64,000 nucleotides of DNA, taken from the IMG/VR virus record IMGVR_UViG_3300022669_000027, positions 3,302-67,301 of that record; one strand, 5' to 3'. The DNA is from a virus. A program made the translations under genes and the position numbers. The notes under the pieces were generated by a model. It was not told the origin of the DNA. It saw only the letters and a list, made by a program, of their open reading frames with translations, and ran no database searches. Shown one piece after another: positions 3 to 52,483 of this stretch; the first letter of the stretch is position 1; each line of letters begins with the position of its first letter.

Positions 3-1133
3 GGAGTTACTAAAATTCAAAAAGAAGAACTTCGCCAACTGGCTTCCGGGAATCCTGAAACTTTTTATGTAGTAGAGAGAATTGTCAATAAGGATCTGCG
101 TTGTGGAGTACAAGCTGCTTTAATAAATCAAGCGGTTCCTGATACTGTTTTTGTGGTGCCCTATATGCGTTGTTCCACAGAAAAGGTAGGGATCAAAAAT
201 ATTACATACGACGGTGGGGCTTTTTGTCAAAAAAAAGCTGATGGTGGATTTTGTTATGGATATAATGACAGTGAATCAGGAGAACCGTTATTGATGACCC
301 GGAACGGTAAATACATGAACATGCATGGATTTTTCAATGAAGACATTCGTAAATTGAGAAAAACTGATGAAGTGATCACAATGGAGATGACGGCTGTAGA
401 CAAACACGGCAACGATCTCCCAAGGGAAATAAGTAATGGCTTGGTCACCAAAGCTATACGGGGCACCATCACCAAAGAAGAGGCTGCGTTGTTCCGGGGA
501 CAAGCTTGGGACATCATTCCCCAAAAAGATTTTTGGAACGGACTCTTCCCCACGCCATATGAATTGCGTTGGAGGAGGGTCACATCAGTGACCCGGAATA
601 TGGATTTAATCAGTAGAATTTATTCTAGGCGCGTGTATTCGGAAGAAGAAGCCCGTATATTTTTTTCTGAAATGAGAAAAAAAGGACTTGAAGGAGCCGT
701 CCTCAAAAACAGAACTTCTCCTTGGAAATCTCACACCAGCCCTCATCAAGTAAAACTCAAAAGAAAACATTGCGCAGAATTCATCGTCACCGGATGGTAT
801 TATGGCAAACCAGGCTGGAAATATGAAAAATGTTTAGGGGGTCTTAATTTTGAATCCGTAGACGGGTTGGTGAAGTGCAATACAGGTTCTGGATTTACTG
901 ACAATGACAGGGGATTTTTGGGATTTGATAAAGACATGAATCCTTTGATAGACGAACAGATTGTGTCTGATTTGGATAAATGGATAGGGCAGATTATATC
1001 TGTAGAATTCGATTCTTTGATCAAAGACAAAAACAGAAAAGACGGAACATGGTCATTGTTTCTACCAATATTTGATAAGCCCCGCCCTGATAAAGTAAAA
1101 GCAGACAATTATGAATATTTAAGGAGTCTATAA
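3..1133 (+). CDS. lig: ATP-dependent DNA ligase (5' end lies before the window)
   Basis: KADG adenylation motif, EGAVLK motif, KLK, and an OB-fold tail (GSGFTD...SLFLPIF...RPDK). The frame of ORF 153..1133 stays open back to position 3. Confidence 0.9.
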   Translation, partial: GVTKIQKEELRQLASGNPETFYVVERIVNKDLRCGVQAALINQAVPDTVFVVPYMRCSTEKVGIKNITYDGGAFCQKKADGGFCYGYNDSESGEPLLMTRNGKYMNMHGFFNEDIRKLRKTDEVITMEMTAVDKHGNDLPREISNGLVTKAIRGTITKEEAALFRGQAWDIIPQKDFWNGLFPTPYELRWRRVTSVTRNMDLISRIYSRRVYSEEEARIFFSEMRKKGLEGAVLKNRTSPWKSHTSPHQVKLKRKHCAEFIVTGWYYGKPGWKYEKCLGGLNFESVDGLVKCNTGSGFTDNDRGFLGFDKDMNPLIDEQIVSDLDKWIGQIISVEFDSLIKDKNRKDGTWSLFLPIFDKPRPDKVKADNYEYLRSL

Positions 1134-2479
1134 TGGATTATGGGTCTTTTATATTAAATAAGCAATACCGAGTAAAAGGAGAAGGAATAAAGCCCTCTTT
1201 TTTGCCTGATTATTTATTTGATTTTCAAAAATATATAGTAGAAAAGAGTCTAGTCAACGGAAGATTCGCCGATTTCGCAGACTGTGGAATGGGGAAGACT
1301 ATTATGCAATTGGTATGGGCTGAAAATATAGTCAGACATACCAATAAACCTGTACTTGTTTTATCTCCATTATCCATCTCTCATCAAACAGTGAGAGAAG
1401 CTGAAAAATTTGGATTGGAAGCTGTCAACAGTAGGGATGGAAAAATAAAGAAAGGAATAATAACTGCTAATTATGAAAGATTAGAAAAATTTGATTTTTC
1501 GGTTTTTGGAGGCGTAGTGTGCGATGAGAGTTCCATTATAAAAAACGCAAAGGGTCAAATACGGAACGCTTTAACCAGTGCCATGAAAACGGTTCCCTAT
1601 CGACTTCTCTGTACAGCCACAGCCGCTCCCAATGATTTTATTGAATTGGGGACTTCTTCTGAGCTTTTGGGGTATTTGGGGTATGTGGACATGTTGAGTC
1701 ATTTTTTTAAAAATGACGAAGATACTATATCCCCTGCATTTTACGGATCGAAGTGGAGATTCAAACATCATGCGGAAGTGCCTTTTTGGAAATGGCTAAG
1801 TACTTGGGCACTGGCTTGTAGAAAGCCTTCTGATCTTGGATTTAAAGACGGAGAGTTTGTTTTACCCGAATTGATAGAAGAAGATCACATTATAAAAACT
1901 GAAAGAAAGAAAGGAGTATTGAGAAATCCTCCTGTAAAAGGATGGAGAGAAACGCGAGAGGACACAAAAGAGACCATAAAAGAAAGATGTGATAAAGCTG
2001 CAGAATTGTTACAAAAAGAGCAATGTGGGATAGCTTGGTGTAATTATAATTCAGAAAGTGAATATTTGAATTCCATTTTGAAAGACGGAGTTGAGGTCAC
2101 AGGATCAGATAGCGATGAGAAGAAAGAAGAAATATTTCAAGATTTTCAGAAAGGCGTTGTAAAATACCTTATAACCAAGCCCAAAATAGCAGGCTTTGGT
2201 ATGAACTGGCAGCATTGTTCTACAATGACATATTTTACGGACTATAGCTATGAAAAGAAATACCAAAGTGTCCGAAGATGTTATCGTTTCGGACAAGAAA
2301 AAGAAGTCACAGTCCATAACATTACCACGGATCGTCAGCGTCATATTTTGGAAAGAGTAAAACAAAAAGAAGCTGACTGCGTACGTATGTTTGAAGAGAT
2401 CATTCAATATATGGAATCTAAGTATTTTCATAAACAAAACCGAATTAATTCAACCATAGAATTGCCAAAATGGATTTAA
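1133..2479 (+). CDS. SNF2-like superfamily 2 helicase/ATPase
   Basis: Walker A DCGMGKT, Walker B VVCDESS, TAT motif III, GFGMNWQ and QSVRRCYRFGQ (motif VI). Confidence 0.88.
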   Translation: MDYGSFILNKQYRVKGEGIKPSFLPDYLFDFQKYIVEKSLVNGRFADFADCGMGKTIMQLVWAENIVRHTNKPVLVLSPLSISHQTVREAEKFGLEAVNSRDGKIKKGIITANYERLEKFDFSVFGGVVCDESSIIKNAKGQIRNALTSAMKTVPYRLLCTATAAPNDFIELGTSSELLGYLGYVDMLSHFFKNDEDTISPAFYGSKWRFKHHAEVPFWKWLSTWALACRKPSDLGFKDGEFVLPELIEEDHIIKTERKKGVLRNPPVKGWRETREDTKETIKERCDKAAELLQKEQCGIAWCNYNSESEYLNSILKDGVEVTGSDSDEKKEEIFQDFQKGVVKYLITKPKIAGFGMNWQHCSTMTYFTDYSYEKKYQSVRRCYRFGQEKEVTVHNITTDRQRHILERVKQKEADCVRMFEEIIQYMESKYFHKQNRINSTIELPKWI

Positions 2480-3417
2480 TAAAAGACAAGTATGCGTTGT
2501 ATAACGGGGATTGTGTAAAAGTAATGGAACAGTTCCCTAAAGAATGTATTGACTTTTCCATCTATTCCCCTCCTTTTTGCGGACTATACAATTATTCATC
2601 TTCTGATTTAGATATGAGTAATTGTGATAGTTATGAATCTTTTTTTAATCATTACAAGTATTGTGTAGAACAAATATATAGATTATTGAAACCGGGAAGG
2701 CTTTGTGCAGTGCATTGCTGTGATATCCCTATACCGGGGCAGAAAAAAGGGTATTATGATTTACCTGGAAAAATAATACAATTACATCATGACATCGGCT
2801 TTAATTTTTTTGGCAGAATAGCGATATGGAAAGAGCCTTTGCGAGTAGCTATCCGTACACGCCTTCGTCATCTTACCCATAAACAAGTAACTTCCGATTC
2901 TTCCCAATGCACGGTCGCTTCAGGTGATTTTTTAGTGATATTCAAGAAGCCGGGGGAAACAGAAGTCCCTGTGGTACATCCTACTGGGTTTATGAACTAT
3001 GCAGGGGAGACGGAAGTTCCTTCAGATATACTTAAATATAGAGGACTGAGGACACAACAAAGAAACAAATACTCTCAATGGATATGGAGACGATATGCTT
3101 CCTGTTTTTGGGATGACATTCGAATAGACAATGTACTTCCATACAAATCAGCAAAAGAACCAGATGACGAAAAACATGTACATCCTCTCCAATTGGATGT
3201 TATAGAAAGAGCTTTAATGCTGTGGACTAATCCTGGTGAAATAGTACTGTCCCCATTTGATGGTGTAGGAAGCGAGGTGTGCGGAGCTTTGTTATGCGGA
3301 AGAAAAGGAATTGGAATAGAATTGAAGAAATCGTATCATAAACAGGCTCTTAAAAATGCAAAATCTATTGAATATGGCAAAAGATTAAAATATGACAGAA
3401 AAGGATTGAGAAAATGA
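2470..3417 (+). CDS. DNA methyltransferase, N6A/N4C family (beta order)
   Basis: Catalytic SPPF near the N-terminus, HPLQL, and SAM-binding LSPFDGVGS...GIELK near the C-terminus. Confidence 0.9.
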   Translation: MDLIKDKYALYNGDCVKVMEQFPKECIDFSIYSPPFCGLYNYSSSDLDMSNCDSYESFFNHYKYCVEQIYRLLKPGRLCAVHCCDIPIPGQKKGYYDLPGKIIQLHHDIGFNFFGRIAIWKEPLRVAIRTRLRHLTHKQVTSDSSQCTVASGDFLVIFKKPGETEVPVVHPTGFMNYAGETEVPSDILKYRGLRTQQRNKYSQWIWRRYASCFWDDIRIDNVLPYKSAKEPDDEKHVHPLQLDVIERALMLWTNPGEIVLSPFDGVGSEVCGALLCGRKGIGIELKKSYHKQALKNAKSIEYGKRLKYDRKGLRK

Positions 3418-49378: not shown

Positions 49379-49681
49379 GAAAAAAATAACGTATTTCGAT
49401 ATTTTTTTCTCGCCAACAAAAAGCCCCTCTCTTTCTTGTCGGTGAAGAGAGGGGCAAAAGGAGGGTAAGCGGAGAACAGAATAATAAAAAACGCTTACTA
49501 ACAACGGACAACACTAATGCTTCGGGAAAGAAGCACAACCACTGGAACCCTTACTTGGCCCTCTCGATTTAGGAATATCCGTTACTAAATTATTATACAA
49601 CGGAAAAAAGAAAAAGGGGAAATAAATATTTCCCCCCGATCCATGTAACCGATAACTGTACCTACTGCATACAACAATAAT

Positions 49682-52483
49682 TTATAAACCGGAAAGCCGC
49701 GTCTGTTCTAATACCCTTTTCTTAATAGGGAATTGACCGTGTATGTAGTATCCACCGGCATCGCAATTGGACACTATCGGACTATGCTTAGTTAATTTAA
49801 AATACCCATAATCAGGCACCGTCAAACAATATACGTCCTGGTCTTCTTCTGGATTCATGGTAACAAGTTCTACTGCAGTATTTTGCAGGGGGAAGGTATC
49901 TGTCCCTTTTAAATACCTCTCCACAATATTGACAAGTATACTGGACAGCATCCACTCCCGACTTTCTTCTGGCCGCCGCTGTACACGCCTTTGAACAATA
50001 CTTATTGCGCTTTTGAATTTCCGCTTCATACTCCTTTTCACAGTGGGAGCAAGTAAACCTGCCTCGTTTGTGGAGTTTATGTTTGACTTTTTGGTAATTT
50101 TCACGAGCCTGTTTTCGTCCTTCCTCTGATTGATGCCAAGCCCGTGCCTTCTTTTGGCTGTCCCCGTCAGAAGTGAAACTGCCCCTCTGAAACCCGTTCC
50201 GTACCCGTTCTTCCAGATGGTATTTTGCATGATCGGAACAAGACACAAGTTCCAGATTCTCAATTTCGTTATTGTCCGGATCATGGTCTTTATGATGGAT
50301 GACATACCCCTTTGGAATTGGGACCACCTTGTCTTTATAGATTTCCCTATGTAATAACCTAACGCCTTTACTGCCAAGGAAACACTGCCAATATCCCCCG
50401 TGTTTAACATAGGTATTTCCGTTATAAACTTCTGTCCTTTGTTGGCCTTTCCTATTTCTACCCATTGCAAATCCTCCGTCAAAAATAAATGATCAGGTGT
50501 AGCTATTATATAATAGCTACGTGCATCAGGTAAAGAAAAAACGTACTTGTATACTTTCTGTTGTTTCTTTTTTATACCTCCCTTAACATAGGAACTCCAA
50601 TCCTCATTACTCACCCTTACCTTGCCCGTGCGCGGAATGTCCTTAAATCTGAAAATCCCCTTATCTGTTTCTACTAATTGATCCCCTCCGAAACAAATAT
50701 CATCTCCCTTCCCCTCTCCTTTTTCCGGGAGACCATTCGCATCATAGGCCTGCTGTTCCAGAGAATCCGTATAAAACGGACACTCTGATGTATTGACCTT
50801 GTACCGACGTTCTCCTTGAGAATTGCAGAACATACCGTTCATAGAGGCAATCCTGTCTTTAGGAACTGGGTTGCGGCTTCTCCTTTTTATTCGCCATCGT
50901 TCATCTTTAAGCAATTGTAGATCAGACTCAGTAGCATTCTGACTTTTTCTATTTTTTGAAGTAGCATCAGGATACACTGTGATGGGCCAACCATGATATC
51001 TGCTGTTGAGTACCCGAATTGTATCAGGAGTATCGAAACTGTTAACAACTTCATCCACAGCTATCGGTGACCCATCCCTCAATACATGAACTACTGCACA
51101 GCCTCTCCCTACATTAAAGTCCATTCCTATATGAAGAGGCTCTTTCTGACGGGGATCTATTCTCACATCAGAATGATTATGCTTCCTACTGAACATATGG
51201 TATACAGTACCGGACGTAAGATTGGTGAAAATCCCTTCTACATACGCCTCTAACAAATTCTCATCATAATTACCTTTCAAACTGTCCACATAATCCTCTG
51301 GGAGATTCGCCTGATTGGAATATGTAGAGGCCCTGACATATATATGTTCTTTTGAGGGGTTCTTTTCCCACCTGTTATACACGAAGTTAAACCCCTCTGG
51401 GGTAGTATATGCGCATACCTGGTTCGTTGGACTGCCCGGTAATTTCTGGCGATTTCTTGCTATGATCTTATTCCATGCGTTCTGGGCATTCTTGAATTTC
51501 AGGGTATCTATCTCATCAACATGACTTCTGAACGCTTCGTACCCGATAATACGATTGGGCTTATCCAATGTCCTTATGACAAACATACCTCTGTTCAAAA
51601 GGTAGATAACATTTTCAGACTTATTGTGGAGGTAGGGGACATTGGCTGTATCAAGGAGTTCCAAAAGGCGAGGGATAAGAATGAGACGTGCAAGATCATA
51701 CGTAGGTTCGTACAAAGCTACTGTAGACCTGGGCCACATGAATTTATCTCGGATTGCCCTGGCCAATAATGTCTGTGTCTTGCCGCTATTATGATGAATA
51801 TGTCCATATTCATCCACATAATTATTTGTATTTAGTACCTGTATATCCCAATAAACCTCCTTCACTTCCTTTACCGAAACCTTTATTATATCCGTAATAG
51901 ACAAATCACTATTCTTCAAAGAGACAGGGTGGGATTTTAGAACATCGTTTGATAATGAGTGACATGCTCCAGCGTCCTCTCCTCCCTGAAGAAATTGTTG
52001 ACCATATTGACGGGATAACTCTCCATAATTCACCAAAGAATCTACGTCTTTTTGAGAATAATGCCCTTCATCTGAAAACAACAATTTCAAATCAGATCCC
52101 GAAGTGGTCTTTGGAAGGTCTCTGTTCAATCGATAAAGGCCGGAGGAGTATCCCAATTCAGAAATCTGTTGATAAGTACCGTGAGATGAAAGAGAGTGGT
52201 GATGCCCGCTTGATACAAATTCTCCGTGCTGCGATTGAACTCGGAACAGATAGTCCTTACCTTTTGGGAACGCACCACTGGTTGGAGAAAGCACGAATTG
52301 ATTACAGTTCTGATCATAACTTAAAACGCGCTCTCCTGGCAATATATCGCAAATATTCTTGAGCCCATTCTCTGTCCATATGCGGGTATCTGCCCGCATA
52401 CAACCGAAGCCTCCAACGAAAGCTGGGTACTTGCAATCTAACCAGAAGAAGTCAGATTGAGGTTGTGTTAAATCCCATCCCAT
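49682..52483 (-). CDS. terL: Terminase large subunit with two inteins
   Basis: After removing the inteins: Walker A GGFGSGKT, Walker B HVDE, YTTPEG, nuclease IGMDFN and DDICDA. Confidence 0.93.
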   Translation of the reverse strand: MGWDLTQPQSDFFWLDCKYPAFVGGFGCMRADTRIWTENGLKNICDILPGERVLSYDQNCNQFVLSPTSGAFPKGKDYLFRVQSQHGEFVSSGHHHSLSSHGTYQQISELGYSSGLYRLNRDLPKTTSGSDLKLLFSDEGHYSQKDVDSLVNYGELSRQYGQQFLQGGEDAGACHSLSNDVLKSHPVSLKNSDLSITDIIKVSVKEVKEVYWDIQVLNTNNYVDEYGHIHHNSGKTQTLLARAIRDKFMWPRSTVALYEPTYDLARLILIPRLLELLDTANVPYLHNKSENVIYLLNRGMFVIRTLDKPNRIIGYEAFRSHVDEIDTLKFKNAQNAWNKIIARNRQKLPGSPTNQVCAYTTPEGFNFVYNRWEKNPSKEHIYVRASTYSNQANLPEDYVDSLKGNYDENLLEAYVEGIFTNLTSGTVYHMFSRKHNHSDVRIDPRQKEPLHIGMDFNVGRGCAVVHVLRDGSPIAVDEVVNSFDTPDTIRVLNSRYHGWPITVYPDATSKNRKSQNATESDLQLLKDERWRIKRRSRNPVPKDRIASMNGMFCNSQGERRYKVNTSECPFYTDSLEQQAYDANGLPEKGEGKGDDICFGGDQLVETDKGIFRFKDIPRTGKVRVSNEDWSSYVKGGIKKKQQKVYKYVFSLPDARSYYIIATPDHLFLTEDLQWVEIGKANKGQKFITEIPMLNTGDIGSVSLAVKALGYYIGKSIKTRWSQFQRGMSSIIKTMIRTITKLRIWNLCLVPIMQNTIWKNGYGTGFRGAVSLLTGTAKRRHGLGINQRKDENRLVKITKKSNINSTNEAGLLAPTVKRSMKRKFKSAISIVQRRVQRRPEESREWMLSSILVNIVERYLKGTDTFPLQNTAVELVTMNPEEDQDVYCLTVPDYGYFKLTKHSPIVSNCDAGGYYIHGQFPIKKRVLEQTRLSGL
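49812..50465 (-). CDS. HNH endonuclease with zinc fingers, nested out of frame inside intein 2
   Basis: LHREIY...IPKGYVIHHKDHDPDNNEIENLEL...H..YH plus two CxxC...YCS..C fingers. GGAGG at 50473-50477 lies 7 nt before the ATG. Confidence 0.88.
   Translation of the reverse strand: MGRNRKGQQRTEVYNGNTYVKHGGYWQCFLGSKGVRLLHREIYKDKVVPIPKGYVIHHKDHDPDNNEIENLELVSCSDHAKYHLEERVRNGFQRGSFTSDGDSQKKARAWHQSEEGRKQARENYQKVKHKLHKRGRFTCSHCEKEYEAEIQKRNKYCSKACTAAARRKSGVDAVQYTCQYCGEVFKRDRYLPPAKYCSRTCYHESRRRPGRILFDGA
50499..50534 (-). promoter_or_regulatory. Candidate internal promoter with a perfect 22-bp palindrome, upstream of the nested HNH
   Basis: Palindrome gtagctattatataatagctac (50499-50520) contains TATAAT, and TTTACC lies 18 bp upstream on the minus strand. 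Confidence 0.5.
51788..52402 (-). mobile_element. TerL intein 1 (205 aa) in the Walker A motif
   Basis: GGFG|CMRADTRIWTENG...VYWDIQVLNTNNYVDEYGHIHHN|SGKT. Confidence 0.92.
51901..52362 (+). pseudogene. Antisense HNH endonuclease reading frame inside intein 1, apparently 5'-truncated
   Basis: The frame is open from 51901 and reads ...GGILEHRLIMSDMLQRPLLPEEIVDHIDGITLHNSPKNLRLFENNALH. No start codon precedes EHR. Confidence 0.75.

Follow-up and report, generated by a model that had tools for sequence, protein, structure and literature searches.

An intein that carries its nuclease as a separate gene in another reading frame has been described for the terL gene of brucellaphages in 2015 (Virol J 2015, PMC4422536), for inteins of actinobacteriophages in 2025 (Gosselin, Arsenault & Gogarten, bioRxiv 10.1101/2025.01.02.630785) and for a cyanobacterial dnaX gene in 2026 (Phillips, DeSimone & Gogarten, bioRxiv 10.64898/2026.09.14.751524). 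The present work concerns the second of two inteins (intein 2) in the large terminase gene, terL, of IMG/VR virus record IMGVR_UViG_3300022669_000027, a 67,301-base record which is evidently a phage genome; the window, i.e. the whole stretch of DNA that was analysed, covers 64,000 nucleotides (nt), positions 3,302 to 67,301 of that record. Intein 2 is very probably a dual-coded, composite selfish element in which two genes overlap, a splicing domain read in the terL frame and a complete HNH endonuclease read in another frame of the same strand. A preliminary description of the window, made from its letters alone, had considered that this architecture might be unreported; the three publications show otherwise, and the window presents the same design in a different lineage, with no new principle.

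The excerpts of these papers on which we rely indicate both likenesses and differences. In brucellaphages Tb and Pr (JN939331, ORF_07/ORF_08), as stated in PMC4422536, a complete HNH with zinc ribbons lies inside the terL intein, in another frame of the same strand, as in the window; JN939331 indeed annotates terL as 'intein present' together with an overlapping, separate HNH coding sequence. The Tb HNH (ORF_08) nevertheless belongs to another family (PF01844), has its catalytic motif in a C-terminal position (residues 150-189) and has no more than a 28-residue motif in common with the window's HNH (E 0.004). Its offset also differs from that of the window, (3170-2347) mod 3 being 1, as does its insertion site, the Tb intein (approximately amino acids (aa) 181-506) being located ahead of the matched Terminase_6N part. 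The non-canonical inteins of actinobacteriophages (PhagesDB) resemble intein 2 in their same-strand nuclease in 'reading frame 3', which is the same offset, in the presence of TerL among their hosts and in an in-frame stretch without recognisable structure, and they include antisense nucleases, as does intein 1 of the window's terL (10.1101/2025.01.02.630785). In the parts of that preprint considered here, it is proposed that such elements arose when a free-standing nuclease gene invaded an intein, and the architecture is called rare, whereas nesting is the majority state in the window's family (61 of the 80 best relatives). The out-of-frame actinobacteriophage nuclease is endonuclease VII-like (IPR004211) and the window's is of the HNH_3 type, a distinction drawn by Pfam; in the Pfam scan, the window's HNH gave no match to the Endonuclease_7 model at E≤0.1. 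It falls in neither of the families of the published same-strand, out-of-frame cases (PF01844 in Tb; endonuclease VII-like).

The dnaX intein, which is sporadic in distribution, also has a nuclease in an overlapping frame under purifying selection, and secondary invasion has been proposed for it (10.64898/2026.09.14.751524). It differs from the window in residing in a cellular host gene; the term 'HNH' is absent from the excerpted text, and the enzyme is an antisense LAGLIDADG nuclease according to the actinobacteriophage preprint (10.1101/2025.01.02.630785). Outside inteins, the ShiLan domain has been described as a 'hidden' out-of-frame HNH in a mycobacteriophage DNA methylase (Genes 2025, PMC11855218). 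According to the excerpts used, it occupies a stop-free host open reading frame (ORF) and behaves as a homing element, like the window's gene, but it is devoid of a splicing domain, its insert stays in the protein and it has no detectable ribosome-binding site, whereas the window has intein lobes and a GGAGG motif. I-HmuI, the nicking HNH enzyme of a group I intron of Bacillus phage SPO1, is likewise an extended multi-module DNA binder whose gene lies within a self-splicing element carried by a phage gene; it differs in being intron-encoded, in sharing only 20% identity with the window's HNH and in its C-terminal DNA-binding modules, which are unlike the two zinc ribbons. In Xu & Gupta 2012/2013 (PMC3592412), the two mentions of 'intein' refer to a purification tag and to a general statement, with no nested gene. 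Within the literature examined, neither an HNH_3/zinc-ribbon lineage located at the nuclease motif of TerL nor a majority-nested state is described.

Two overlapping genes in intein 2

The terL precursor matched Terminase_6N (E 7.4e-08) and Intein_splicing (E 4.8e-10, 39.9 bits for a cut-off of 35.8), and its match to Terminase_6C was weak, at 21.4 bits, slightly below the cut-off of 22.6. Intein 2 is inserted in the TerL nuclease motif GKGDDI/CDAGG (the slash marks the insertion point) and presents the features of a class 1 intein: Cys1 directly after the N-extein, a block B (ATPDH) with T66 and H69, and Asn310 followed by a +1 Cys. The position and the splicing blocks given to it in the preliminary description agreed exactly with the sequence, and the linker, there said to show no recognisable domain, indeed yielded none in the Pfam scan; its pLDDT values (predicted local distance difference test) in AlphaFold2 were mostly 46-58, with one helix stretch at 79-89. 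By contrast with this linker, both lobes were modelled with confidence as beta-rich structures (pLDDT 92-98 for aa 1-98 and 85-97 for aa 271-310), and a Foldseek search with intein 2 retrieved only mini-intein or Hint structures (gp41-1, Ssp DnaB, NrdJ-1), seven at E≤0.001, over approximately 90-110 columns. Because its catalytic residues are intact and TerL is an essential packaging protein, intein 2 is expected to splice, and two splicing events would be needed to mature the precursor.

The same DNA, read in a shifted frame of the same strand, encodes an intact HNH protein with two zinc fingers, as was initially proposed. This protein matched HNH_3 (PF13392; E 7.3e-13, 48.4 bits for a cut-off of 24.8, residues 37-80) and phrog_15471, 'HNH endonuclease' (E 7.4e-27), and the pattern CxxC...CxxxC occurs in it twice, forming two zinc ribbons which are presumed to be its DNA-binding part. 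Both frames are open over 654 nt, in agreement with the earlier figure of about 650 nt. The frame offset, (52483-50465) mod 3, is 2, HNH codon position 1 corresponding to TerL codon position 3 and HNH position 3 to TerL position 2. The stop codon of the nested gene falls within the codons of the C-terminal splicing block, and its GGAGG Shine-Dalgarno motif, present where it had been claimed, is made from the intein codons L-T-E-D-L-Q-W. Nine residues (H39, H57, H58, N66, N70, H79, C139, C142 and C157) were invariant among the 58 nested HNH proteins of alignment A4. With the family alignment as input, AlphaFold2 gave a mean pLDDT of 90.8 for the nested HNH, and 97-98 in the zinc ribbons; its best fold match in the PDB was I-HmuI (1u3e; E 6.2e-03, prob 0.99). 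The coordinates of all these features are gathered in Table 1.

Selection was compared frame by frame, as the preliminary description had suggested, in 62 of 66 nested cases (61 IMG/VR loci, the window and four phages, all presented below), namely those with the window's offset and both hidden Markov model (HMM) matches. In the HNH frame, differences at codon positions 1/2/3 amounted to 0.513/0.475/0.655 (1891 pairs, 62 nested genes); in the N-splicing lobe, read in the TerL frame, they amounted to 0.537/0.464/0.699, i.e. the same p2<p1<p3 signature, and close pairs, in which alignment is not in doubt, repeated this pattern. HNH-frame proteins of five named cases aligned at E 1e-21 to 1e-45, and TerL-frame linker peptides at E 3e-7 to 11. 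In X4, a metagenome relative with approximately 95% identity, 7 of the 11 listed substitutions within the overlap were silent for the HNH and changed the linker, three did the reverse and one changed both; outside the overlap, 10 of 13 substitutions were silent for TerL. Substitutions are thus patterned by the HNH frame within the linker and, within the splicing lobes, by the TerL frame. This pattern supports purifying selection on the nested HNH as a protein, the linker apparently being kept only as an open frame. Dual coding, as first put forward, is borne out by a separate out-of-frame gene with start signals of its own and under purifying selection.

Moreover, the open TerL frame is not a product of chance, since with the HNH protein held fixed it remained open in only 0.08% of 20,000 codon-order shuffles (P 0.0008) and 0.28% of 20,000 synonymous resamplings (P 0.0028). 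For the window's HNH, the third frame was open in no shuffle or resampling.

Table 1. Positions, within the window, of the features of terL, its two inteins and their nuclease genes (slashes mark intein boundaries).
Feature	Positions	Strand	Remarks
terL precursor ORF, 933 aa, two inteins	49682..52483	-	exteins: aa 1-27, 233-596 and 907-933
Intein 2, 310 aa, TerL aa 597-906	49766..50695	-	flanks GKGDDI/CFGGDQ...IVSN/CDAGG
N-terminal splicing lobe of intein 2, aa 1-98	50402..50695	-	all beta strands (AlphaFold2, Foldseek)
Intein-frame linker, aa 99-270 (172 aa)	49886..50401	-	open frame, no recognisable domain
C-terminal splicing lobe of intein 2, aa 271-310 (...DVYCLTV...IVSN)	49766..49885	-	pLDDT 85-97; C-block HMM E 1.7e-20
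Nested HNH endonuclease gene, 217 aa + stop	49812..50465	-	-1 frame of terL
HNH catalytic core, H57 H58 ... N66 ... N70 ... H79	50229..50297	-	invariant in alignment A4
Two C-terminal zinc ribbons, C139/C142/C157/C161 and C178/C181/C197/C201	49863..50051	-	cysteines invariant or nearly so
GGAGG Shine-Dalgarno motif	50473..50477	-	7 nt 5' of the nested ATG (50465)
Candidate promoter-like site, TTTACC-18-TATAAT	50505..50534	-	40 nt 5' of the nested ATG; 10/12 consensus matches
Intein 1, TerL aa 28-232	51788..52402	-	in Walker A motif GGFG/SGKT
Antisense HNH of intein 1, 153 aa stop-to-stop	51901..52359	+	phrog_10730 match of ORF 51949..52362

Distribution and movement of the element

A tblastn search with the nested HNH against 50,697 phage records retrieved 24 records, including RefSeq duplicates, with none from phages of Gordonia, Mycobacterium, Arthrobacter or Microbacterium among them, and ten were inspected. 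In Tetrasphaera phage TJE1, Acinetobacter phage Highwayman, Clostridium phage phiCDHM19 and Rhodobacteraceae phage LS06-2018-MD07, terL is annotated as a single unbroken gene, and the match falls within it at offset 2; all four have an intein at the same TerL motif and a full HNH ORF in the offset-2 frame, which is unannotated in 4/4 of these public records. The shuffling and resampling tests applied to them gave P values of 0.0000-0.14 for the open TerL frame. In five other inspected records, the homologue is free-standing and has 4-12 stops in the frame which is open in nested copies. The record of phiCD119 (AY855346, 778..2595) presents terL annotated in pieces, as ter2 (778..1746) and 'ORF3' (1897..2595), with the HNH match out of frame with ORF3; it probably reflects a sequencing error or a broken terL, its relative phiCDHM19 having one continuous terL with a nested HNH.

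In IMG/VR, a scan with the single protein gave no confirmed relative, while a scan with alignment A1, built from ten family members, confirmed at least 212, of which the best 80 were kept and surveyed. Nesting, defined by another same-strand frame being stop-free across the whole match, was found in 61 of these 80, with the window's offset in 59 and the other offset in two (L066 and L068); the remaining 19 had 1-11 stops in the frame that nested ones keep open, and the HNH was in frame with its host in none of the 80. The ORFs containing a nested HNH were 355-1236 aa long. Among the 66 nested cases, splicing HMMs matched the N-terminal lobe in 65 and the C-terminal block in 64. As for the printed intein boundaries, in 56 of 58 the first residue is Cys and the last is Asn, with Cys or Ser after it, the other two being off by one residue in the cut, and C1, T66, H69 and N310 are invariant among the 56 inteins of alignment A3; near-duplicates and misaligned boundaries were removed by hand, leaving 55 IMG/VR rows in A3 and 57 in A4. 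One locus counted as not nested, L049 (2869..3516), has an HNH with a single stop in the host frame and groups with nested cases on the tree described below; it may be a nested copy in which the terL frame is broken or was misread in sequencing.

The N-exteins were scanned with Pfam in 56 of the 61 nested IMG/VR loci, those with an N-splicing HMM match whose contig includes 120 aa or more of N-extein. Since 25 of these 56 matched Terminase_6N and 17 matched Terminase_3, the element, by this domain evidence, occupies the equivalent site in at least two TerL families. Identities were compared among 56 cases having 250 aa or more of N-extein. Between loci L072 and L088, identity reached 73% in the HNH and 69% in the splicing lobe but only 32% in the extein; between L062 and each of L064, L048, L040 and L032, the HNH was 52-55% identical, with no extein BLAST match at E≤10. 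Judged from these identities, the splicing lobe and the HNH move together horizontally between unrelated TerL genes, faster than their hosts.

A quick maximum-likelihood tree of 90 HNH proteins showed nested and free-standing forms interleaved, with 11 parsimony changes between the two states against a shuffled mean of 23, and at least 3 of the 11 were forced by well-supported branches. This tree comes from a quick search, with support from the Shimodaira-Hasegawa-like approximate likelihood-ratio test (SH-aLRT) only; it is midpoint-rooted, two long branches meet in it (L075 and L090), and it gives no direction of switching. On it, the nested HNH of Highwayman (L002) is sister to the free-standing HNH of Acinetobacter phage BP10 (L009), with an SH-aLRT of 95. 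The BP10 gene sits 5' of terS, and 12 stops interrupt the former host frame. This pair appears suited to studying the entry of a gene into an intein, or its exit. The two cases with the other offset form a single clade (SH-aLRT 96). Almost no shuffle left the other host frame open (0.0000, once 0.0001), and free-standing genes have 2-37 stops in it. The bias towards one offset (59 versus 2) is plausibly mechanical, because with a protein rich in Lys, Asn, Glu, Asp and Arg the host frame in use is far cheaper to keep open.

The window's terL carries a second nuclease gene, antisense within intein 1, both non-canonical layouts (out of frame on the same strand, and antisense) being present in this one gene. 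The antisense ORF 51949..52362 (+) matched phrog_10730 (E 6.3e-39) over profile positions 98-234 of 234 only, and in Pseudoalteromonas phage PHS3 and Pectobacterium phage Amona the antisense HNH of the same intein is of full length, at 236-242 aa. In comparison with these relatives, the 153 aa found here suggest an N-terminally truncated and probably decaying version. In the PHS3 record (KX912252, 1366..3177), the annotated terL begins past the intein and the antisense HNH is annotated as a separate gene; this terL is mis-annotated as shortened, because the sense frame is open from 1366 across the intein (..AWGGAG/CVHPDT...VHHN/SGKS..). On the 3' side of the window's terL, a terminator-like hairpin (49614..49637, minus strand), with a 10-bp stem and then a T run, lies approximately 45 nt past the stop codon.

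Proposed mechanism and alternatives

The following sequence of events may account for the element. The 933-aa precursor would be translated through the linker, and the Hint domain would then excise itself together with the linker and join GKGDDI to CDAGG, thus restoring the TerL nuclease motif. The I-HmuI-like HNH_3 nuclease would be translated alone from the ATG at 50465, behind GGAGG, from terL mRNA or possibly from an internal transcript. Free in the cell, it would nick or cut, at the insertion site or close to it, the terL of co-infecting phages whose allele has no intein, and repair would copy intein and nuclease together. Such homing is probably the function of the dual-coded element, and indirect support for cleavage of that target site comes from unrelated TerL genes, in which the element occupies the same motif.

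Several observations weigh against this interpretation. To the anatomy, per-frame selection, conserved layout and joint horizontal movement observed above, it adds splicing, independent translation and a cleavage target, which we infer from sequence. The penultimate residue of intein 2, and of many of its relatives, is Ser; the usual residue at this position in inteins is His. By a simple rule, 38 of the 66 nested ORFs have no Shine-Dalgarno-like motif, promoter-like sites were not enriched in the region (6 versus 8.1 +/- 3.0 in shuffles), and no RNA runs carrying the stretch were listed. The fold match to I-HmuI was weak in template modelling score (TM 0.26-0.31, E 6e-3), which is expected since the nested HNH is an extended multi-module protein. 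The helix at approximately aa 121-150 of intein 2 (pLDDT 79-89) may give the linker a structural role, and some linker peptides still align with one another at E 3e-7, though overlap with a conserved frame would itself cause such alignment. Finally, a blastn search of terL against the 50,697 phage records gave 9 weak partial matches, with 0/9 covering 80% of terL, so that, for the window's copy, these records supply no close kin with and without the intein, the pattern that classically marks homing.

That same scarcity of near relatives showing recent transfer agrees with another view, in which the nested HNH of the window's copy is a silent relic while the intein splices and is inherited only vertically. 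The decay of the antisense HNH in intein 1 of the same gene also points this way. The nested ORF is nonetheless of full length, with all nine family-invariant residues, an ATG and GGAGG, and most changes in its close metagenome relative are HNH-silent (7 of 11); a relic would moreover gather stops quickly, only the other frame being protected. We consider it improbable that the gene is silent.

Somewhat less probable still is a role other than homing, or not only homing, with the HNH acting as a terminase-associated packaging helper like HK97 gp74 and being kept in terL for co-expression. HNH genes of the HK97 gp74 type reportedly lie beside the terminase genes, and their products are reportedly required for cleavage by the terminase or for packaging (Kala 2014). 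All five inspected annotated free-standing homologues lie in the terS-terL-portal module, and the excerpts of the brucellaphage paper raise this idea for its own nested HNH (PMC4422536). Adjacency to terminase genes comes trivially, however, to a gene nested in terL, and a position beside the target gene is also typical of free-standing homing endonuclease genes. The patchy occurrence of the gene, its movement with the intein between unrelated TerL families, its switches between nested and free-standing states and its best fold match, an intron homing enzyme, all argue against a helper and are consistent with the homing nuclease proposed above.

The HNH could also be produced by programmed -1 ribosomal frameshifting, as a fusion to the N-extein and the N-terminal lobe of the intein. 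Its frame is indeed the -1 frame of terL, and a T-rich run, TTTATTTTTG, occurs within the 27 nt that separate the ATG from the upstream HNH-frame stop. Inspection of that 27-nt stretch by eye, with no dedicated tool run, showed no canonical X XXY YYZ heptamer. Across the 66 nested cases, the first start codon in the HNH frame sits a median of 4 codons past the upstream stop, which leaves little room for a shift, and it is ATG in 53, GTG in 8 and TTG in 5. A Shine-Dalgarno-like motif is found 3-12 nt 5' of this first start in 28 of the 66, compared with 345 of the 2775 ATG trinucleotides (12.4%) that the host ORFs contain. A frameshift product would need neither ATG as the first start nor enriched Shine-Dalgarno-like motifs, and because both are found this pattern favours internal initiation of the nested gene; production by frameshifting is accordingly judged very improbable.

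Lastly, four metagenome runs have words in common with the window, each in a small share (0.07-0.19), and their contigs cover only parts of it; one of the runs crossing the junctions may be the source sample. Contig X1 (50232-50510, 0 differences) and contig X3 (50438-50588) span the nested start, and contig X4 spans the nested stop and the C-terminal junction (49686-49846), with no indel. An assembly artefact, in which two compensating indels would have displaced an HNH that is truly in frame, had been named at the outset as the scenario that would undo dual coding, and it is for practical purposes refuted by the identical offset in four phages isolated and sequenced independently in different laboratories and in 59 of the 80 IMG/VR loci, with 0/80 in frame, by a TerL frame that is not open by chance and by the gapless crossing of the junctions in contigs of three other runs.

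Significance for inteins and their phages

With regard to annotation, gene callers, by reporting the long terL ORF alone, leave the nuclease invisible, and the intein would be scored as nuclease-free. As regards the biology of inteins, the relatives in IMG/VR, at least 212 in number, constitute a large natural data set on the way in which a splicing domain and a nuclease gene come to form a single mobile unit. The family also bears on the maintenance of an overlapping frame kept open under one-sided selection, and on whether free-standing nuclease genes move into inteins and out of them.

Whether out-of-frame nesting is a stable majority state of the HNH_3/zinc-ribbon lineage, and not a rare accident, is in our judgment an evenly balanced matter; this reading is based on the nested majority among the best 80 relatives, the lack of in-frame cases among them, the occupation of at least two TerL families and the repeated switches between nested and free-standing forms. 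If it is true, inteins would be safe harbours for free-standing nuclease genes inside essential genes, and a sizeable share of the 'mini-inteins' that catalogues list as nuclease-free would actually be armed. In mixed infections, the nested nuclease could bias the inheritance of the head module.

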